Both the position numbers and the translations under genes were made by a program. Below the pieces are notes generated by a model that was not told where the DNA came from, ran no database searches, and saw only the letters and a program-made list of their open reading frames with translations. Positions 4,952-51,308 of a DNA stretch of 64,000 bases are shown here, piece by piece; within the stretch, counting starts at the first letter, position 1, and each line of letters opens with the position of its first letter. The DNA comes from a virus (Duplodnaviria; Caudoviricetes), in the IMG/VR virus record IMGVR_UViG_3300021400_000130, positions 89,614-153,613 of that record, one strand, 5' to 3'.

Positions 4952-6036
4952 TGAGTATATTAAAAGTACAAGAATTAACTCCTTCGGTCTACACTGAAGA
5001 TTCAAGAGATTTTCAATTACTAGGCAGACTGTACGACAGTGTGTTTAATGGAATGAAGTTTGATACAGATTCTATTATTTCTTTAATAGATACAAAGGAG
5101 TGTAGAACGAGTGTCTTACAATTACTTCAAACTAAGTTAGGCTTCTTTACAGAAAGAAAAATAGATGACGAAAAACTTAGGAGTATACTTGAATGCTTTC
5201 CAATAGTAGTTCGTAACAAAGGTTCATTGAAAGCAATCAAAGAAACATTATATCTATTTCTAAGAATGTATTCAGTAGCCTCTGATATGGATATCTACTA
5301 TCTTAAGACGCCAACAAGTCCACCTTTTTCAGAAGATGGTCCATGTGTTCTTTCAAATGGTAAGTTGCCTGATAATAATAGTTTGATAGTAAGAATACAC
5401 TCTTTCCATACAAAACCAGATACTTCTGTTTTAGAAGAATTATTTAGATATATTCTTCCTGCAGGAATTAACTACTATATAGAATTTGATAAAGGTACTT
5501 CTCTTCCGGACATTGTATTAAAGAGTGAAGATTCCGCAGAACTACTATTTCTTTCTGATAATATTAGTGCCAACTTAAGAGGGCATGACCAGTCACAGTC
5601 TTATAAGTTAGGTTCTGCAAATACGTCATCAATTATTTCAAATACTAGTTATGTAAGTAATCGTTTCATTGGGTACTACGATTCAGAACAAGATGCTGAC
5701 GATTATCTTGAAACTTTATCAACTCAAGTTTACAGTACCGCAATTATAAACTATACTTCTGAAGATAGTACCTCAACAGAATCAAGACCAATGATATGTG
5801 TTGCATATTCAAATAATACTCCTACTTGGTATAGAATTAATTTCTTAGGAAATATAAGTACTGAAGAAGTTAGTACAGAGGGAGGAATTATTTCAGCTCT
5901 TGAAGAAAAAGGTATAACTGTTAATAATGGAGATCTTATATTATATAATGATGTATATCTTTTAAGAGTTGAAAATAATTGGCAAGAATGTAATTATGCA
6001 AGATATATTCTAAATACATACTCTATAACGGGATAA
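4951..6036 (+). CDS. Baseplate/tail protein (P2 gpI-like N-terminus)
   Basis: P.VY...SRDFQLL, LQLL..KLGF, RNKGSLKAI and YILPAGI motifs; stop/start overlap with gp6-like gene. Confidence 0.6.
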   Translation: MSILKVQELTPSVYTEDSRDFQLLGRLYDSVFNGMKFDTDSIISLIDTKECRTSVLQLLQTKLGFFTERKIDDEKLRSILECFPIVVRNKGSLKAIKETLYLFLRMYSVASDMDIYYLKTPTSPPFSEDGPCVLSNGKLPDNNSLIVRIHSFHTKPDTSVLEELFRYILPAGINYYIEFDKGTSLPDIVLKSEDSAELLFLSDNISANLRGHDQSQSYKLGSANTSSIISNTSYVSNRFIGYYDSEQDADDYLETLSTQVYSTAIINYTSEDSTSTESRPMICVAYSNNTPTWYRINFLGNISTEEVSTEGGIISALEEKGITVNNGDLILYNDVYLLRVENNWQECNYARYILNTYSITG

Positions 6037-6045
6037 GGAGTACAC

Positions 6046-6552
6046 ATGAATATTACTAACACTTGGTATGTAGGAACAGTAAATGTTAAACTAAAGATAA
6101 AAGATAAAGTATTTTCTTATCAATCTCATAATGAAGGTCTACCTGGATTATTTGAATCATTTGCAAGAATAATGAGCGGAAACTATCGCGGAGACTGCGA
6201 TATTCCTAAATATATTGATATAAGAAAATTAGTACCAGGAACAGAAGATGAATATCTTTCTTTCTTAACACTTAACAGACTTCCTCTAACAGGAGCTAAC
6301 TGGAGTGTTAACGACCAAGGAGAATTTACCGCTAATTTCACTGCTACAGTATCTAGTGATATGTTATACAATCAAGTTCCTGTAACTTCAACTGACACCT
6401 TCAAATTATATCTTATTACAGATAATGAAAGTAAGACAGGAAAGAGAGATTTAGCAAGATTAGATATTCCTGCAGAACAGCTCTCTCGTATAGTTCCTGG
6501 TGTGAATGCTATCATAGAATGGTCAATGAAACTAACAAATCCGACTGAATAA
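6046..6552 (+). CDS. Hypothetical virion/tail protein
   Basis: AAGGAG SD; within structural operon. Confidence 0.55.
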   Translation: MNITNTWYVGTVNVKLKIKDKVFSYQSHNEGLPGLFESFARIMSGNYRGDCDIPKYIDIRKLVPGTEDEYLSFLTLNRLPLTGANWSVNDQGEFTANFTATVSSDMLYNQVPVTSTDTFKLYLITDNESKTGKRDLARLDIPAEQLSRIVPGVNAIIEWSMKLTNPTE

Positions 6553-12154: not shown

Positions 12155-12630
12155 ATATTGGGCAGATAATATCTAATAAGATACTTGAACGCTCAAAGGG
12201 ACAGAATGAAAAGATGAATGAAATTGTATACTTTGAATTGAATAATTGGTTCTGCGGAAGAGATTATCCACCGGATGGTAATTTGAAAACATGGGTAGAA
12301 AGTAGTCAATTCAACAATGATACCTGGTGTAAAGAGAATAAGATCTGTGTTAGATCAGGTATCATTGATATGTCTGAAAATTGGTGCATCACTGCAACAA
12401 AAGATTGGGTTGAAAAATGGTGCCCGGAACTTCTTACTGACAAGAGTTATACTTATACAGTATGTATGTACTCTCGTGGAGAGCACACTAAGAAAGAAGA
12501 ACAGGGGTGTTATGCTCAGTTCTTACGACATGAAGATGAAGAGGGAGAAGTATACGGTACATTTGGTTGGCCTTTTCTTGAGTATGAAGAAGGAAACTTT
12601 GGATCTACATATTATAGTGAAGAGGATTAA
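12151..12630 (+). CDS. Hypothetical protein (start uncertain: 12151 or 12214)
   Basis: Fills gap up to promoter; YFELNNW..GRDYP. Confidence 0.55.
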   Translation: MNIGQIISNKILERSKGQNEKMNEIVYFELNNWFCGRDYPPDGNLKTWVESSQFNNDTWCKENKICVRSGIIDMSENWCITATKDWVEKWCPELLTDKSYTYTVCMYSRGEHTKKEEQGCYAQFLRHEDEEGEVYGTFGWPFLEYEEGNFGSTYYSEED

Positions 12631-13690: not shown

Positions 13691-14503
13691 GTGTTAGACG
13701 AATACAGACAAGCCTATACGCAGTCTGCTAACCAAATACCTGATTGGAAGAAAGTTAATCGTAATGAATTATGTAGAAGGTATAAAGAAGCAGAACGAGA
13801 TGGTGAAACAGAATTACTGAGTTCCTATATAAGCGCTATTGTTCTAAACTTCTGGCATGTTTTGACAAAAACATATAACAAACAACCTGTTAAAGTATTG
13901 TCAGAAGAAGATTGTTATGAATGCTTGATTGAATCAATACTTTTTGTTTTAGGGCGGGCTGCTTGGGAAGATCCTACTCAGAGTATATACAAAGATGAAA
14001 AAGGTCCAGAAAAAGCAATCAATCTAACTTTTCAACAGAGCATAACAAATCTTTTTGTCGCTGATCAAAGACATAAAAGGAAAGCTATGAGCAATGCTTT
14101 GTCTCTTGATAATACACTGAAAGATGAAGAAGATTCACAAACATTTGTTTCTTTGTTAGCAAAGGATGAATTATCTCCTTTGCTAGAAAATCTGTTTTGG
14201 GGTAAAAAGATAAAACAATATTTTCAAAACAATGACTTTATTGCTGCATTTGTTCTAGATCTTTTAATCAAAGATCCTTCTTTGATTGAAAACAAAGATG
14301 AGAAGTATATTATCAATTCAAGAAAGATTGCAAAACAATTGAATGAACTTCCTGATAATTATGCTCGTGAGTTTTCAAAAGAGTACGGTATCTCTGTTGA
14401 AAAAGTTGAATCTGTTCTTAGTTATCTATATAATGTAAATAGTAGAAATATTGATAAGATATTATATCCTCTGATACAGGATATAAAGAAAGAGTGTGAG
14501 TAG
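13691..14503 (+). CDS. Hypothetical protein, possibly sigma-factor-like/regulatory
   Basis: Helical; RHKRKA..ALSLD resembles sigma region 2/3 junction; heads replication operon. Confidence 0.4.
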   Translation: MLDEYRQAYTQSANQIPDWKKVNRNELCRRYKEAERDGETELLSSYISAIVLNFWHVLTKTYNKQPVKVLSEEDCYECLIESILFVLGRAAWEDPTQSIYKDEKGPEKAINLTFQQSITNLFVADQRHKRKAMSNALSLDNTLKDEEDSQTFVSLLAKDELSPLLENLFWGKKIKQYFQNNDFIAAFVLDLLIKDPSLIENKDEKYIINSRKIAKQLNELPDNYAREFSKEYGISVEKVESVLSYLYNVNSRNIDKILYPLIQDIKKECE

Positions 14504-21158: not shown

Positions 21159-21410
21159 ATGATTATAGATAACATATTCATTAGAGAGGTATTTGGACTT
21201 TCAGCTTCAGTCTTTGTCCTTCTCTCTATGATGATTAAATCAAATGACCGTAAGGGTAATATTAGAATGAGATTACTGAACTTAACAGGAAGTGTCCTGA
21301 TGATAATCTACGGATTTTGGATCGGTTCTTTTAGTACAATATTTCTAAATATTATCTGTTTGGTCGCACATATTTATTATTTAATAACTTTGTTTAGAAT
21401 AAAAGACTGA
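21159..21410 (+). CDS. Small 3-TM membrane protein (YgjV/PQ-loop-like)
   Basis: AGGAGG SD; G..ASVFVLLS..MRLLNLTGSVLMIIYG..LN pattern. Confidence 0.6.
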   Translation: MIIDNIFIREVFGLSASVFVLLSMMIKSNDRKGNIRMRLLNLTGSVLMIIYGFWIGSFSTIFLNIICLVAHIYYLITLFRIKD

Positions 21411-21414
21411 TTTA

Positions 21415-21478
21415 GTGGGCCGGGTTGTTCGAAAGTCCCACCAACCCGAACCTTACAATAAAATAAAAATAATAGGAG
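21415..21478 (+). promoter_or_regulatory. Structured 5' leader of yhhQ-like gene; candidate preQ1-I-like riboswitch/pseudoknot
   Basis: CGGGTTG/CAACCCG stem, loop TTCG..CCAC, GTGGG/CCCAC crossing pair, A-rich tail to AGGAG. Confidence 0.45.
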
Positions 21479-21487
21479 TAATTTACT

Positions 21488-22252
21488 ATGATTGAAAAAT
21501 TAAAAAGAGAATGGGAAGAAACAAAAGTACTTTTTAACTGTATGCCAACAATTCCGTTTGCATTTCTTGTTTGCTCTCTGATTGCAATGAACTTTCTTGC
21601 AAATAGAGGAGGAGCTATTGGTCCTGTAGCATTTGATTGCGGTATTGTTGTTTCTTGGGTAGTGTTCCTTGCTTCTGACATGCTTGTTAAGAGGTTTGGT
21701 GCTAAAGCAGCAATTAAGATTAATATTGCAGCAATTATTCTTCAGTTAGTTTCAGTTGGTCTAATGACTCTTGGCGCAGTTATTCCTTGGGCAACTTATG
21801 GTTCTACTCCTGAAGAGTCTGCAGTATTTACTATGATTTTCAAAGCGGCTCCTTGGCCTCTGTTTGCTAGTGCAGGTGCTGCCCTGATTTCAAATGTTAT
21901 TAACTCTCTTATTTCTAAAGGCATTCTTTTGAGATTTAAAAATCGTACATCAGGTAAAGCGTATGTAACAGCCTCTTGGATTTCTACTACTGCTGGTCAG
22001 TTCTTTGACAATTTCTTGTTTGGTCTGTTTTTCAGTATCTGGCAGCCTTGGTTCCCTTGTTACGGAACATGGAAGGCTATTCCAATGCTAATTCCAATGG
22101 CCTTTGTCGGTGCACTTCTTGAACTCCTGTGTCAAGTAATCTTCACTCCGGTAGGTTTTAAGATTGCTGAGACCTGGAGAAAGAAAGGTGTAGGACAAGA
22201 ATACGTAGATATGGTAGCTGAAGCTCAAGAAGTAAATACAAATCTTGCCTAA
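21488..22252 (+). CDS. yhhQ: VUT/YhhQ-family queuosine-precursor (preQ0/preQ1) transporter
   Basis: Multi-TM; MNFLAN, G....W.VFLASDMLVKRFG, STTAGQFFDN motifs. Confidence 0.8.
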   Translation: MIEKLKREWEETKVLFNCMPTIPFAFLVCSLIAMNFLANRGGAIGPVAFDCGIVVSWVVFLASDMLVKRFGAKAAIKINIAAIILQLVSVGLMTLGAVIPWATYGSTPEESAVFTMIFKAAPWPLFASAGAALISNVINSLISKGILLRFKNRTSGKAYVTASWISTTAGQFFDNFLFGLFFSIWQPWFPCYGTWKAIPMLIPMAFVGALLELLCQVIFTPVGFKIAETWRKKGVGQEYVDMVAEAQEVNTNLA

Positions 22253-22291
22253 TCACATTAATAGAAGAAGGATCTTTTCAAAACTACGTAT

Positions 22292-22912
22292 ATGAATATT
22301 CTATGTTTTGGCGATTCTAATACTTGGGGATTTGATGCGGATAATCTGTGTCGATTCCCCAAGGAGGTCCGTTGGACCGGTAAACTATGTGAGCATCTTG
22401 GTCCGGAATATCAAGTATCTGAATTCGGAATATGTGACATGACATTTGGGACAGACGATCCTTTTTATAAATCATGTAACGGAATTCAAAATATTATTCC
22501 AGCAATAAGAGCAAACTCTCCTCTAGATTATGTTATTGTATCTCTTGGCATAAATGATTGTAAGAGATATCATTGTAATAGTGTAGAGAAGATTTTAGAT
22601 GATGCTGGAAGATTAATATATCTAATACAAGGATATTCCGACCTTAATACAGAAAGAGCACAGGTGATTGTCTGTGGTCAATGTGTTCCTACTATCGACA
22701 TTCCTCGTTGTTATCCGAGAGAATTTGATAGTGCTTCTATTTGCAAGATATATGAATTAAACAGAGAACTACGAAGATTTTGTAAGACGATTGACGTTCC
22801 TTTTATTGATCCTCCTGGAGAAATGAAATTCTGTAAAGACGGAGGGCATTACTCTAAAGAAGGTCATGAAATTTTTGCAAGAAATGTTGCACAATATATA
22901 AAATCTTTGTAA
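22292..22912 (+). CDS. SGNH/GDSL hydrolase
   Basis: FGDSNTWG, LGIND, DGGH catalytic blocks. Confidence 0.9.
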   Translation: MNILCFGDSNTWGFDADNLCRFPKEVRWTGKLCEHLGPEYQVSEFGICDMTFGTDDPFYKSCNGIQNIIPAIRANSPLDYVIVSLGINDCKRYHCNSVEKILDDAGRLIYLIQGYSDLNTERAQVIVCGQCVPTIDIPRCYPREFDSASICKIYELNRELRRFCKTIDVPFIDPPGEMKFCKDGGHYSKEGHEIFARNVAQYIKSL

Positions 22913-22946
22913 AGATTACTCATCAATAATCTCCTAAAGTGTATAG

Positions 22947-22975
22947 TTGAATTTGAATTGTTTTTATATTATACT
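22947..22975 (+). promoter_or_regulatory. Sigma-A-like phage promoter
   Basis: AG-TTGAAT-N17-TATACT. Confidence 0.7.
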
Positions 22976-23006
22976 ATAGAACAAATACGAGCAAAGGATC
23001 TTTGGA

Positions 23007-23930
23007 ATGAAAAACGAAAAAACAATCTACTATTTTTCTGGTATGTCTTACCAGGATATGAAGAGACGGTTGAATGTTGATCAGCTATTTTCTCAGTGGC
23101 ACGAGCGTAAAGGAATTGAATCTCTGATTGAGTATAAGAAGGAGCATCCAGAGCATACAGGTCGTATTATGGTGGACTCTGGATCCTTTACTGCTTATAC
23201 AAAAGGCGTCCATATTGATATTGATGACTATCTGAAGTTTATTGATAAGGTTGGAGACTATGTTACTGTGTTTGTTGCAGTTGATGATGTTCCCGACCCA
23301 ATGAACATGGATTATACAAAAGCGGAAACTACTTGGAAGAATTATCTTTATATGGTTGAAAGAATCAGACCAGAGTTACGCGATAAGCTCATTCCGGTAT
23401 TTCACTACGGCGAGGACTTCAAGTGGCTCCGTAATATGTTGGAGTATACACATCCTGACGGGTCTCATATTAAGTATATTGGACTTGCTATTTCTCTTGA
23501 AGGAACAAAAAGAGTTAGAGTTAACTGGGGTAGAGAGTGTATGCGAGTTATCGCAGAAAGTTCTAATCCGAATGTAATGACTCATGCTTTTGGTGTTGGA
23601 GTTAAATCTGTTCTTGATAATATTACAGTAACTTCTACGGATGCTACAAGCTGGGTAAAAAGAGCGGCTTACGGAATGATTAGTATTGATGACCAGTCGA
23701 TTCATGTCTCAGAAGTTATGAAAAATCGTGCAGACGACAGATATCTTGGTCAGCAAAATGTAGCACTTCAAGAAGAAGTAATGAAGCGTATTAAAGAAAA
23801 AGGATTTACTTTTGAAGAGTTAGAGCAAGATTCAGGTAAACGAGCAGAGTTTAATATTCTTGATACTCTTGACTGGGTAGCAAAACTTGAACCGCACAAC
23901 ACAACTTTTAAGAACGGATTAGGGTGGTAA
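23007..23930 (+). CDS. dpdA: tRNA-guanine transglycosylase-like protein, probable DpdA-type DNA 7-deazaguanine insertion enzyme
   Basis: MVDSGSFT, VDDVP, IPVFHYGE, YIGL, HAFG, STDATSW motifs of TGT/DpdA barrel; downstream of yhhQ. Confidence 0.7.
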   Translation: MKNEKTIYYFSGMSYQDMKRRLNVDQLFSQWHERKGIESLIEYKKEHPEHTGRIMVDSGSFTAYTKGVHIDIDDYLKFIDKVGDYVTVFVAVDDVPDPMNMDYTKAETTWKNYLYMVERIRPELRDKLIPVFHYGEDFKWLRNMLEYTHPDGSHIKYIGLAISLEGTKRVRVNWGRECMRVIAESSNPNVMTHAFGVGVKSVLDNITVTSTDATSWVKRAAYGMISIDDQSIHVSEVMKNRADDRYLGQQNVALQEEVMKRIKEKGFTFEELEQDSGKRAEFNILDTLDWVAKLEPHNTTFKNGLGW

Positions 23931-23931
23931 T

Positions 23932-24639
23932 ATGTCAGTACTTATTACAGGAACTAGTTATGGTGTAGGAAGAGCAACTGCTCTTAAGTTTATGGAAGAG
24001 GGTTATTCTGTAATCGGGCTTGATTGGAAGCCTGCTACTATTCCTCTTTCCAATAGTTATATTCATCATCAATGTGATGTAAGTGATTTCAATTCTCTTC
24101 CTGATCTGATTAACATTGAATATATTGTTAATAATGCAGGAATTGTAACCCCGAAGGCTAATGCTATTGCTGTAAACCTCATTGGCTATATGAATATTAT
24201 AAAGAAGTATAGCGGAGACCCCGCACTGAAATCAATTGTTCAGATTGGTAGTACAGCTTCTATCAAAGGTTATGACAATATGGAATATTGTTGCTCTCAG
24301 GGAGGTCGTGATGCTCTTACTAAGTGGGCCGCGAACAATCTAGGTCACGATAGTCGTCACGTATTAGTTAATTCTTTGAATATTGATGGCATTGTTCCCG
24401 CTCCTGAAGGTAGTCTTGATGGAACGGCACTAGAGCCAGAGCTCTACGCAGACCCCGAACTTATGAAGGCAATTCAAGACCTGAGTATTACAGGTCGTCT
24501 GTCTACTGTTCATGATATTGCAGAATGGATATTCTTTGTACTTACTAAGAACAGAATTATGACAGGTGAAATTATTAAAATTGACGGCGAACTTATGAAC
24601 TGTTATAAGTTTATCCCCTATCCTGGATGGGATACTTGA
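23932..24639 (+). CDS. Short-chain dehydrogenase/reductase
   Basis: LITGTSYGVG, CDVSD, VNNAG, IGSTAS, YCCSQ (YxxxK Lys replaced by Gln), TGEIIKIDG. Confidence 0.88.
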   Translation: MSVLITGTSYGVGRATALKFMEEGYSVIGLDWKPATIPLSNSYIHHQCDVSDFNSLPDLINIEYIVNNAGIVTPKANAIAVNLIGYMNIIKKYSGDPALKSIVQIGSTASIKGYDNMEYCCSQGGRDALTKWAANNLGHDSRHVLVNSLNIDGIVPAPEGSLDGTALEPELYADPELMKAIQDLSITGRLSTVHDIAEWIFFVLTKNRIMTGEIIKIDGELMNCYKFIPYPGWDT

Positions 24640-45875: not shown

Positions 45876-46490
45876 ATGAATAAGATAAGTTTGAAAGGGA
45901 TGCTCAGAAACATTGAGTATTCTCATAATGTAGAAGATGTTGAGTATCAGAAAGCAGAACTCATTGTTCCTAGAGATGACGGAGAAGATGATGTTCTAAA
46001 CCTTAAGTTTAAAAGATATTCAAACAGATATACAGAGGGTCAGATAGTCTCCTTACAAGGAAATATTCGTTCATATTCTCAAAGGTTAGATTCGGAAAAG
46101 AATAAAGTTGAGCTATATGTCTTTACTTATTTTGATATTCCACAGACAGATGAGAACGATAAAGAAATTATAAATCAACTTGAAATTGACGGGAAAGTAT
46201 GCAAGATTGATAAGTTAAGAAAGAATAAAGAAGGTAAAGAAAGTTTTCATTTTATTCTTGCTAATAACATATTTGTAGAAGATCGCGATACAAGAATTGA
46301 TACTTATTTACCTTGTGTATGTTTTGGAGAATGTGCAAGAAAGTTATCAAAAGAATTACATGTTAGCGATTATATAATTCTAAAAGGACAGTTACATTCA
46401 AGAACTTATAAGAAATATTATGAAAATGGTGAAATGGAGATTAAGACAGCTCATGAGGCGGTGATTTCATCTTATGAAGGCCTCGATTAA
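45876..46490 (+). CDS. ssb: Tandem OB-fold single-stranded DNA-binding protein (clostridial type)
   Basis: GNIRSY, YLPCVCFG..A, GQLHSRTYKK, TAHE. Confidence 0.8.
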   Translation: MNKISLKGMLRNIEYSHNVEDVEYQKAELIVPRDDGEDDVLNLKFKRYSNRYTEGQIVSLQGNIRSYSQRLDSEKNKVELYVFTYFDIPQTDENDKEIINQLEIDGKVCKIDKLRKNKEGKESFHFILANNIFVEDRDTRIDTYLPCVCFGECARKLSKELHVSDYIILKGQLHSRTYKKYYENGEMEIKTAHEAVISSYEGLD

Positions 46491-47044: not shown

Positions 47045-47045
47045 G

Positions 47046-47080
47046 AAAACAGAGACAAGTATTATCTTGTCTCTGTTTTT
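47046..47080 (+). terminator. Rho-independent terminator (possibly bidirectional)
   Basis: AAAACAGAGACAAG-TATTAT-CTTGTCTCTGTTTT(T). Confidence 0.85.
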
Positions 47081-49098
47081 ATGTTAGTTGATATTAATTA
47101 AATGTTATTATATAATATACATGTAAAGTAAATTAATCTGAAAAGGAGAACTTCAAATGAAAATCTATGTTGTGATTGAGGATATTGATGATTACCCCGA
47201 AATGGGTGGCGGGTCGCATCTCGATGCGGTTTTTCTGAACTATACTAATGCGGAAAAATATGTAAAGCAGAAACAGCATGAAGCTGACGCTTGGGATGAT
47301 TTTTGTAGAGACCGCATTTCTTGGCATGTTGAGACTTGGGAAACTGCTGATGAAAGGGAGAATGAAAATGACTAAATATTCTGTCAGTGTTCTTCATAAT
47401 GGTAAGCGGACGGGGATAGCGTTGTTTGCTGATTACTATAGTATAGTAAGAAGAAGTGGAGTAAAAAAATGAGAACTTGTCAGAATTGCGGTTGCTACAT
47501 TCCTGATAAATGGACTACTTGCCCTGCCTGTTGGAGACGCGTAGAGCCTGTGCTCAAAGAGAAAAAGACTGAATGGAACTCTTGGAGAGATGGAACACGC
47601 TATACTGAGGAAAAACCGTATAAGGGTAGCTATTCAAAATGCTATTGCGTAAAGATTTACTATAAGGACGATACGACGGTAGACACCATCTTTACTACTC
47701 TTGAAAATGCACTCAACTATGCCCAAAAAAAGATAGACAAATTTTGGTATTACGTACAGTTTATTGAAGTGTGGGATTGTCAAACGCAAGCAAGGATAGG
47801 ACTTTTCTATCCTAACTCTTAACAAAGGAGAATAAAAAAATGGTTGCTGGTAAAATTATTGGTATGCTTATCTTGTGGATTGGCGTTGCTATGTACCCTC
47901 TCGCAGATGAGGATGCTACCCCGCAGGCTTGGCACAAATTCCTTCAAAATCTTTTAAATTCTGTCCCTATCGTGCTTGGGGCACTTATTATGACTTGTGT
48001 GTAAAGGAGATAAATAAAATGACAGTCTACAAAGTTACAGTTGAACGCTCTGGCAAGTATGATGGTGAGTATTTTGTCAACGTTGATGATAGACGCGCCG
48101 CCGTCAACAAAGTCCGCGCTCTTGGTCTTCAAGATGGCGACAGAGTAATTGTTACCAGTGCTTTCCCTTTTACCCTCTATAATGGGGACATTATCAAAGG
48201 CAAATACGTTATGTAAAGGAGGGCTGAAAATGTTTCATACAAATGAAATTATTGCCTTTTATTTCAAGGCTCATCCCTCTGTTTCTTATGAAACTATTGC
48301 CGCAACTCTGAAACTTGTCTATGATTTGACTGATAAAGAAATCGAAGAGGGGTATAAAATTTTCAAAGAAACTCTTGACAAGTAAATGAATCTATGTTAT
48401 ACTATAATCACAAAAGAAAAGGAGATAATAAAAATGATGGTTTATTTACTGTGGGAACACGATGGTAATGAAACTAATCTTTTTGGCGTTTATCGTCTGA
48501 AAGATAAGGCTGTCGCTTGGGAAGAATACCTTGAAAAAAGGGCTAAGGATGATAGCCTGTACTGGCTCCAGTATAGCGTTACGGAAGCGTATGTGAGGGA
48601 ATAAAATGTATGTTTATGTAATCGTTCATGTCTATGTAGACGAAGATGGCTATGGCCATGAAAAGGTGAGTAGCATTTACAGAAGTCATGATGAAGCGCA
48701 GGCGCGCGTCAACGAACTAAACTCTATGTGCTTCCCTTGGGACATTGAGTGGTATGAGATTGATGAAATGTGGATGCACTGAAAAGTAGCATAACTTTTT
48801 AGAGGAGATAAAAATGAAAAAGTTTGTTTATCAGGTTGATGGCTTTGAGTTTGTAGATACTGTTGCTTTTGGTGAAGCTTGGAAGGAAGCTAAGGAGGAA
48901 GCTACTGCACTCCATGTTCCGATTTATCGCCTTGTGATTGAAGATGGCAAGGTGCGCGAAGAGGTTTACGTCAAGTCTGGTTGTTTCCTGCGTTCTGACC
49001 TAGCCCTTGTAAAGAATGTAATGATTTTCTAAAGCCTTAACCACTTAAGTTGATTTTAATTTACTCTTATTATATAATATACTTGTAAAAAGAAAAGA

Positions 49099-49136
49099 GG
49101 TGCGCCAACCGGCTACGGTCGGAACACGCCGACACC
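49099..49136 (+). ncRNA. Structured leader motif, copy 1
   Basis: GGTG-CGCCAA-CCGGC-TACG-GTCGG-AACACGCCGA-CACC. Confidence 0.65.
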
Positions 49137-49566
49137 ACTCAGTGAAGCACAGAAGGAGATATGATATGTACGTTGTAAGAAGACTCCGTGATGACGGAGA
49201 GTGGGTCTATATGAATTGCTATCGGAAGTATAGCGAAGCACTGTTGGCCCGAGACACATTTGAAAAGAAATACGGAGGGAAATATCTTATTTCTTGGGAA
49301 GAATAAAAGGAGTGCATAGTATGGACTGGCAAGAAATGTATGATATCCTTCATGAGTATCTTGGTATTAGCGAAGAAGCACTCGGGATTGCATGTGCTAT
49401 CGGCGGATGTAATGAAGAGACAATGGAAAGAGTTCTTTTCTATAAAACAGGCTGGCGTACTTTTGAGGGTTGGTTCAGTGAGTTTGAAGAAGGCTAAGTT
49501 GATTTTAACTTAGCCTTATTATATAATATAAGTGTAAATAAAAAATATTTCCTCAGTAAGTTAGAA

Positions 49567-49604
49567 GATGCGCTCACTGACTACGGTCAGAACACGCCGA
49601 CATC
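49567..49604 (+). ncRNA. Structured leader motif, copy 2
   Basis: GATG-CGCTCA-CTGAC-TACG-GTCAG-AACACGCCGA-CATC; compensatory changes versus copy 1. Confidence 0.65.
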
Positions 49605-51308
49605 TAAAACTGAAATGGAATACTCTTCTGAGGAGGAAGGAAGTAAGATGGACAGACGTATCAAAGAAGAAAGAATCAAGTCTGTCAAAGCAATGGAGTT
49701 TCTTGCTCGGCAGATCAACAATGAGAATATTTTTGAAAGTTGGCTCATTAATGGTCCCGCGGATGGTGATATTTGCTACGGAGATCTTGAAGTGAAGCCC
49801 GAGGATTTCGAAGATCTTGAGTACTACATCGAAGATAATGAATTTCGAGATCTGATGAAAACATTTCTCAAGCTAATGTGCCAGGCTAAAGATGACGGAG
49901 GTCTTTACTGCGGTAATGTTTGCACAGAAGGGCCTATCTTCTATGGTGACTATTATTTTGGATGAATAGGTACTAATAAATACTCTAAAAAAATTGAAGG
50001 GAGAAATTACTGATGGCTATTCTTCTGCCGTTAACAATCGGAACCATCACGCTGATTATCGGATTCGGTAGTATTTTGACTGCCTGCATTATCAGTGAGA
50101 TCAAAAACAAACGTCACAAAAGGTAGAATTGAAAGGAATCTTATTGTTGATATTTACATATGTGTATTATATAATATAAGCGTAAATAAAAATTAACGGA
50201 GATACAACATGAAACACGAAGCACTCAAGTCTGAAGAATATAAGAAAGCCTACGCTTACATGAAAGAAGGCGTTAGCTTCTTTGTGTTAAACCAGTACGA
50301 GGAGCGCAAATTGTTTGTGAAGGGTTCCGTTATCTACAACCCTAACACATTGAAAACCTTTTTTAAACTGGCGTATGACCTGGAAGATCAACTTGTTATT
50401 GTCCCTTGTGCACTGTAAAGGAGAATATATATGAATACTTGGAAGATTGTGTGGCATTGGATTGATGAAGATGGCTACATTCGTAGTAAGGTCGTTTTCT
50501 CCGCTGATACTGAAGAAGCCGCCCTTAAAGAGTGGAGACAGCAAATAAGGCTGGGTACCTATGGTTGGTATGATATTGTGAAAGGGGAATAAGTATGAAC
50601 TATTACAATATTGATAAAGAGTCACATTATTATCTTTGTGTGCATCCTCTTGAAACATTCTTAGGGATTATTTCTTTTACTTCTTCTAATACTCCCACAA
50701 AGTGGGTTGAGTATCGTGTTGTTGAAGAAAACTATAAAGTAGACGACGGTTACAAAATTGAGCTTCGTCCTGAGGAAACCGGTTATGGGAAAGAGACGTT
50801 CTATCAAGAAGATTTTGTGTCAATGCTCAATCGTGGTCAGATTGTAAAAAAGAAACCTAACCATCATGTAGAAAAGATTCTCTGTGAAGAGCCTATTACT
50901 CCTTTGGCTCATATTATTCATGCAGGTTGGGCAATTATAGAAGAATAAGATAAATAAAATATAAAGGAGTGCTAATATATGCTTAGCAAGAAGATTACAG
51001 TCTATGCCATCAAAACTACAAAAGATGAATACCGTTCGTCTTATGACGAATTGTTCGACACACTCGAAGATGCCATCGACGCTTCCATGAACTATGCCGA
51101 CTGGTATACCAGCAATGGGACTTGTACTATCGACAAGATTCTCATCGGTTGTGGAAGTATCTATAGAGTAGAAGAACGCTGGCGTCTCGATAAGGGCTGC
51201 ATTGTGGAACACGAAAAGAAAAACTAGAAAAATAAAGAAGTTGAATTTTACCTGTTTTTACTATATAATATAATTGTAAAATAAATTGAAGTTTCAAAGG
51301 AGCAAGAT

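Follow-up and report, generated by a model that had tools for sequence, protein, structure and literature searches.

Alignment of 13 distinct sequences has shown that a 38-nt motif, found twice in the early region of an uncultured phage, is a conserved RNA element that folds on the sense strand of early transcripts in phages. The element is real and well supported, with a sharply defined invariant core; it is an uncatalogued phage RNA and probably controls how early messages are read. Among its possible roles, we tentatively favor that of a nut/put-like signal acting on the transcribing host RNA polymerase.

Early promoters of the phage

The phage (G000) is a 153,613-bp (154-kb) uncultured IMG/VR record with direct terminal repeats. 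We analyzed its final 64 kb, here called the window, in which GC content is ~35% and the + strand holds all large genes. From ~46.5 to 62 kb the window contains many small ORFs behind a repeated host-type promoter, consisting of TTGATT, a 17-nt spacer, TATAAT, and then a conserved TGTAAA start region. The extended consensus of these early promoters (TTGATTTT, spacer, TATAAT, ~6 nt, TGTAAA) implies a conserved initial transcribed sequence. Sites of this type are found at window positions 47088, 48375, 49050, 49499, 50147, 51241, 51929, 60765 and 61709, with ~20 more across G000. The 38-nt motif is present at only two of the extended-consensus promoters of the genome. Outside the window, promoters of the same type lead straight into tRNA-like sequences rather than ORFs (G000:C1, ~6036-6130, 12327-12420 and 14247-14340); no tRNA was found in the window itself.

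Only two strong terminators were called between window positions 46000 and 62000. An 11-bp perfect hairpin with an A/U-rich tail (49490..49517, + strand), read from the sequence and not called by a simple terminator scan, forms a terminator-like end to the first of the two motif-bearing operons, and its loop carries the -35 element of the second operon's promoter. Elsewhere, a strong bidirectional terminator (47045-47080) adjoins the promoter at 47088. Both arrangements look like terminator-promoter cassettes that separate early gene blocks.

Two copies of the motif lie in early leaders

Copy 1 of the motif (type 1; 49099..49136, + strand) scored 70.8 bits with the covariance model and copy 2 (type 2; 49567..49604, + strand) scored 70.5 bits. 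At 468 nt apart, the copies are served by separate promoters just upstream, in agreement with a preliminary description of a 38-nt structured motif present twice, each time between a strong promoter and the first gene. Promoter 1 (49050..49078, + strand) has the -35 element TTGATT, the -10 element TATAAT and the genome-wide consensus ending in TGTAAA; promoter 2 (49499..49527, + strand) has near-consensus -35 and -10 elements. Each promoter matches the host-type consensus at 10 of 12 positions with a 17-nt spacer, and a 32-nt block is common to both. Assuming a start ~7 nt past the -10 element, copy 1 begins near +15 and copy 2 near +34. Searches with a 21-nt degenerate core, allowing up to three mismatches, detected these two sites and no others, either in the window or across the 153,613-bp genome (0 expected in shuffles).

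The two copies differ at the seven positions listed in the preliminary description (2, 8, 9, 12, 14, 23 and 37), and all five stem changes keep pairing. From copy 1 to copy 2, pair 2/37 changes from G-C to A-U and pair 12/23 from C-G to U-A, both fully compensatory, and pair 14/21 changes from G-U to A-U; positions 8 and 9 are unpaired. The outer helix (P1) is thus GGUG/CACC in copy 1 and GAUG/CAUC in copy 2, and the upper helix (P2) is CCGGC/GUCGG and CUGAC/GUCAG, respectively, with the same invariant core of bulged helix and UACG loop.

Copy 1 is followed by gene A (46 aa; 49166..49306, + strand) and then by gene B (58 aa; 49321..49497, + strand), the second gene of the same operon. Family searches assigned neither to a family, and the gene B homolog in L016, a relative of G000, is placed in a different, motif-free operon. 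Copy 2 had been described with a flanking helix over part of the SD region. The helix exists, its 5' arm (49550..49556, + strand) pairing with a 3' arm (49628..49634, + strand) that overlaps the purine-rich ribosome-binding region. However, it is not maintained in relatives, as L016 and L118 each have an uncompensated mismatch in the 5' arm. Therefore, we place this helix outside the core element.

Compensatory changes support a bulged hairpin

The gap-free alignment (A4) holds 13 distinct rows of 50 nt, from which the consensus of the motif is GRUGCGCYMACNNNCUACGGNNNGRACWCGCCGACAYC. From base to tip, the element consists of a 4-bp lower helix, a bulged G-C helix of three pairs, a 3-by-5-nt internal loop, a 5-bp upper helix of free sequence, and a UACG loop. 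Invariant positions number 26 of the 38, including the short G-C helix with its two single-base bulges and the UACG tetraloop, which is unchanged across all 13 sequences as had been claimed from the two copies. The variable unpaired positions (8, 9, 25 and 28) are all within the remaining internal loop. In the GC-rich phages described below, P1 is lengthened to as many as 10 bp by sequences that are unrelated yet pair.

The P1 core (4 bp) and P2 (5 bp) are fully paired in 13 of 13 rows. Pairing holds in 95.6% of cells, compared to 23-51% once the 3' partners are slid by 1-3 columns, and no column shuffle attained the observed covariation score. The slide and shuffle controls, made on few and related sequences, support the structure, short of proof. 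Four core pairs covary among the 13 sequences: 2/37 (AU in 8, GC in 4 and GU in 1), 12/23 (GU in 5, CG in 4 and UA in 4), 13/22 (GC in 9, GU in 3 and UA in 1) and 14/21 (AU in 5, GU in 5 and GC in 3). Together with the complete pairing of the P1 core and P2, these pairs bear out the earlier proposal of a real structured RNA in early leaders, kept on the sense strand by compensatory changes.

RNAalifold independently yields the same fold, bulged helix included. Both RNAalifold and RNAfold add the invariant pairs C5-G33, G6-C32 and C7-G30 between P1 and P2, with A34 and C31 bulged, which leaves the 3-by-5-nt internal loop. Because these three pairs never vary, they remain a prediction. G-U pairs are found on the sense strand only, showing that the fold is that of RNA (or of sense-strand single-stranded DNA) and not of an operator in duplex DNA; a DNA operator was rejected, as the G-U pairs would be C-A mismatches on the opposite strand.

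A stable hairpin near the 5' end, preceded in the AT-rich clade by a purine-rich run, could also be a 5'-end stabilizer or an RNase processing signal of early mRNAs. We consider this role very unlikely. Protection alone would not call for 26 invariant positions, the helix of the AT-rich clade is too short for RNase III, and the motif is present at only 1-2 of roughly 20 similar promoters in G000.

The motif matches no known RNA family

The preliminary description recognized no family, and a search of the window with Rfam 15 likewise returned no match at the gathering score. Under relaxed settings, there was no sense-strand match over the motif at E up to 10 and none in four GC-rich loci at E up to 1. 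A literature search with the core sequence returned unrelated papers only.

We examined and rejected several specific identities. A preQ1-type riboswitch, prompted by a 7-deazaguanine cluster at 21159-24639, has no Rfam match here and the A-rich tail is absent. By inspection, the GA/AG dinucleotides required for a K-turn or loop-E motif are missing. A leader peptide was rejected because an in-frame GTG or ATG within the motif reaches a stop after 2-7 codons in the GC-rich copies. It should also be noted that two listed ORFs start within the motif in the window (ATG 49568, frame 49568-49795; GTG 49100, frame 49100-49165); these are artefacts of the motif sequence, and the frames are not conserved in relatives. 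A type III toxin-antitoxin RNA of the ToxI kind has tandem ~36-nt repeats, a terminator and a toxin gene, and the motif is present in single copy, with no tandem repeats, at every locus.

The motif also departs in form from three phage or operon signals. The HK022 put-type fold has two adjacent stem-loops in about 65-70 nt, whereas the motif is a single hairpin of 38-50 nt. For a lambda-type nut site, the loop is UACG rather than a GNRA-like pentaloop, and the boxA-like CGCUCAC of copy 2 is CGCCAAC in copy 1; no N-like arginine-rich protein was found by inspection of the downstream ORFs, which gave no family matches. An Aca-type 5' UTR operator was rejected because no operon gene has a Pfam or PHROG match and the motif is not repeated in the promoters. 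Finally, a riboswitch-like gene association was rejected because the downstream genes are unrelated and of no known family, and the motif was found in phage DNA only.

Distribution among phages

Motif instances were located by pattern scans and protein-guided look-ups, and phage records and genomes were also searched with a covariance model (R1). Searches of phage and metagenome sets, as had been proposed, found further homologues whose stem pairs covary. The 13 distinct versions come from relatives of the AT-rich G000 and from GC-rich phage contigs (51-60% GC) that have almost no genes in common with it. The relatives of G000 are L003/L005, L012-L015, L016, L017, L118 and L026. The GC-rich group comprises the short contigs L020 and L022; L080, a 28-kb contig of 60% GC; L023 (= L044 = G003:C2), a 72-kb contig of 54% GC binned into a Clostridiaceae MAG; L105 (= G154), a complete 78-kb IMG/VR phage of 51% GC; and L186/L187. 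By BLAST, only 10-19 ORFs are common to G000 and G154 or G003:C2, none of which looks RNA-binding, yet 26 of the 38 motif positions are identical.

Model R1 found two copies of the motif in G000 and one in every other phage record. Relaxed pattern scans of IMG/VR contributed only L105. A strict pattern scan of GTDB representative genomes returned 51 loci, of which one is real, the phage-like 72-kb contig. The motif is absent from 50,697 deposited (cultured) phage records, and R1 matched none of 150 other genomes from the order to which the instance-bearing MAG belongs. A host copy in that MAG was rejected, as the lone weak R1 match falls inside an integrase gene. Mimicry of rRNA was also rejected; the best R1 match to the 16S/23S operon of one genome of a candidate host order reached 10.5 bits, on the antisense strand. 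With just 13 distinct sequences, every one of them metagenomic, the family is small and may be narrow in reach.

Leader context and downstream genes

In the AT-rich clade, the motif starts 15 nt (type 1) to 34 nt (type 2) past the putative transcription start of strong promoters and ends 17-43 nt ahead of the start codon, with no terminator between. Upstream of the GC-rich copies no clear sigma-70 promoter was detected, and we therefore propose closeness to the 5' end for the AT-rich clade only. Three of the four GC-rich lineages (L020, L022/L080 and L023) have an intrinsic terminator between the motif and the next gene. In these, a canonical GC-rich hairpin and U tract lie 30-50 nt past the motif and the next ORF begins 25-50 nt beyond the terminator; the linkers between motif and terminator are unconserved. 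L080 has a second terminator 1.8 kb further along the same operon. In L023, the motif begins directly after the stop codon of the upstream gene, giving a layout that resembles gene, signal, terminator, next gene. In L105/L186, the hairpin past the motif has no U tract and the leader is ~150 nt long. This leader (L105:10700-10800, - strand; L186:262-360) holds a second hairpin and a possible long-range helix (CGGUUAU/AUAACCG), suggesting that the functional RNA may be larger there.

Several other sequence features were observed around the GC-rich copies. A conserved block of the AAATCTGTA type, followed by A-rich sequence and a ribosome-binding site, stands ahead of several unrelated genes in L020, L022/L080, L023 and L105 (two genes), and looks like a lineage-specific translation-start or gene-junction signal. 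Operator-like palindromes upstream of the motif have the forms GCACAAA-C-TTTGTGC and TTTTTCGC-N6-GCGAAAAA (L020, - strand, ~60-75 nt upstream; L022:424-452), and a AAAGGGGGT box recurs upstream in L020, L080 and L188. In its early region, G003:C2 also has a type II hammerhead ribozyme (RF02276; 51.7 bits, gathering score 37), which is encoded on the strand of the motif and lies ~800 nt downstream of it (L088:644-714, - strand).

The terminators allow for an RNA that is itself the product. In the three GC-rich lineages, motif and terminator would together form a compact transcription unit of two hairpins, upstream of the genes, from which a short, abundant early RNA of ~100 nt could act in trans, for example as a decoy or inhibitor of a host defence or RNA-binding protein. 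A single copy per genome would suffice for this, the motif is located in early regions crowded with small genes of no family, and its sequence is extremely conserved across unrelated phages. However, the motif of the AT-rich clade is simply part of an mRNA 5' UTR with no terminator, neither 151 genomes from one candidate host order nor 16S/23S rRNA yielded a host RNA resembling it, and the tandem repeats of type III antitoxins are missing. We regard a trans-acting RNA as improbable.

The same terminators, or the pairing at the ribosome site of copy 2, could serve as the expression platform of a small-molecule riboswitch aptamer. The motif has features of an aptamer, namely a compact fold, invariant unpaired and bulged nucleotides, and freely covarying helices. 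Terminators follow it in three lineages, the 5' strand of P1 in L020 is complementary to the 5' arm of the terminator as we read the sequence, and the flanking helix of copy 2 covers the ribosome-binding region. On the other hand, the gap of 30-50 nt to the terminator and its unconserved linkers do not fit a riboswitch, nor does the lack of conservation of the copy-2 helix, and copy 1 has no expression platform. The motif was found in phage DNA alone (one phage-like contig among the species-representative genomes and none in the 150 other genomes of one order) and the genes behind it are heterogeneous small proteins of no family. We therefore give little credence to a riboswitch.

The genes past the motif differ between lineages. 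The gene most often linked to it is gene C (105 aa; 49648..49965, + strand), which encodes an acidic, helical protein of no known family, modeled as a helical bundle (pLDDT 70) with no fold match in the PDB. Homology look-ups place gene C directly after the motif or in its operon in the window, L003, L012, L016-L018 and the GC-rich L080 (52% identity). Distant homologs in L018 and L019 have no motif, and a profile comparison found no relation between gene C and the downstream gene of G154.

A trans-acting RNA-binding protein, of phage or host, could use the motif as an operator to tune how well one or two early operons are translated or how stable they are as transcripts, in the manner of the hairpins bound by Aca1 and Aca2. 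Proteins typically recognize features such as the invariant single-base bulges of this short helix, and the motif begins just past the putative transcript start, as Aca RNA motifs do (PMC13551039). Furthermore, the two copies in one genome share the core and differ in P2, and gene C, which encodes an acidic protein, accompanies the motif in five contexts, the GC-rich L080 among them. Against this, no helix-turn-helix or other nucleic-acid-binding family is present among the operon genes, and no candidate protein is common to all motif-bearing phages, gene C itself being absent from G154 and G003:C2. Across all lineages, the start codon lies 17 to about 150 nt from the motif, and in most the ribosome-binding site is not overlapped; such a widely varying distance argues against a simple ribosome-site operator. 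A protein operator is thus possible but doubtful.

A possible role in antitermination

The preliminary description offered three functions (a riboswitch-like aptamer, a protein-binding site and a put/nut-like antitermination element) without choosing among them. The genomic context favors the nut/put-like element, with the motif close to the operon start and terminators behind it in GC-rich relatives, and weakens the riboswitch. The core is near-invariant, yet these phages have no plausible RNA-binding protein in common, which suggests that the partner comes from outside the phage and is either host machinery or a small molecule. Of the two, the small molecule is less likely because the motif was found in phage DNA only and precedes unrelated genes. 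The operon-entry position, the terminator directly after the motif in three lineages, and the presence of only 1-2 copies per genome all fit a signal to the elongation complex like nut or put; the low copy number is also more in keeping with a signal at operon entry than with a general leader.

Under this reading, the invariant bulged helix would be the recognition surface for a partner that is identical across these phages, most likely the transcription elongation complex of the host or a host factor attached to that complex. The RNA, made early in the nascent transcript, would act in cis so that polymerase reads through downstream terminators. Genes behind these terminators would then be expressed only from transcripts that carry the motif, as is the case with lambda nut or HK022 put.

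Several findings count against antitermination. The AT-rich clade has no terminator between the motif and the first gene, and the L105/L186 hairpin lacks the U tract of a terminator. That no good sigma-70 promoter was seen ahead of the GC-rich copies also weighs against it. Known antiterminators that consist of RNA alone or of RNA plus a factor include phage put (PMC9378689) and, from Gram-positive plasmids and conjugative elements, conAn2 (PMC8191782) and canT (PMC11658703). All are larger than the motif (about 70 nt in two hairpins for put, >100 nt for the others), and none is similar in sequence. A bolder version of this reading is a factor-independent "mini-put", in which a single 38-nt bulged hairpin would bind the gut-Clostridia RNA polymerase from which it emerges and make it resistant to terminators, as a module exchanged between unrelated phages. 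We consider this version unlikely; if it were true, the motif would be the smallest processive antiterminator RNA known.

Should the motif indeed target the transcription machinery, it would give phages of Firmicute-type hosts a very small and portable means of terminator read-through, and would be a new example of a regulatory RNA module common to lineages with almost no shared genes. Regardless of function, it is a well-supported new structured RNA family with a clearly defined invariant core that is open to direct mutation.

Comparison with known systems

The lambda nut site (boxA and boxB, with N protein) is, like the motif, a short hairpin signal in early transcripts, and in the GC-rich phages the order of upstream gene, motif and terminator recalls that of cro, nutR and tR1. 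The nut site differs in its GNRA-like pentaloop, where the motif has UACG, and in its boxA, which is not conserved here; furthermore, no arginine-rich N-like protein was found adjacent to the motif.

Hairpins fused to early promoters are reportedly also found between the small early genes of T4-type phages, as promoter-early stem-loop (PeSL) cassettes. The hairpin at 49490-49517 in the window, which overlaps promoter 2, is of this kind. The motif itself differs from PeSL in lying downstream of the promoter, inside the transcript, with a sequence-invariant core, and in being present 1-2 times per genome rather than at many junctions.

The 5' UTR hairpins of anti-CRISPR operons, associated with Aca1, Aca2, Aca10 and Aca12 (PMC13551039), resemble the motif in their placement, just past the transcript start in strong early phage operons for small acidic proteins, and in having a covarying stem with conserved core pairs. 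However, the motif loci have neither an aca-like helix-turn-helix gene nor a matching DNA inverted repeat in the promoter, and the motif mostly ends short of the ribosome-binding site.

The HK022 put RNA (putL/putR) is a factor-independent processive antiterminator (PMC9378689). It differs from the motif in size and form (about 70 nt and two stem-loops, compared to one hairpin of 38-50 nt), has no sequence similarity to it, and functions in E. coli, whereas the hosts of the motif-bearing phages are probably Clostridia. Nevertheless, the motif would, like put, be a cis-acting, orientation-specific phage RNA with no dedicated phage protein nearby; put lies past early promoters and ahead of terminators, as the motif does past promoters in the AT-rich clade and ahead of terminators in L020, L022/L080 and L023. 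As with put, a partner in the host machinery would explain why the motif is conserved across otherwise different phages.
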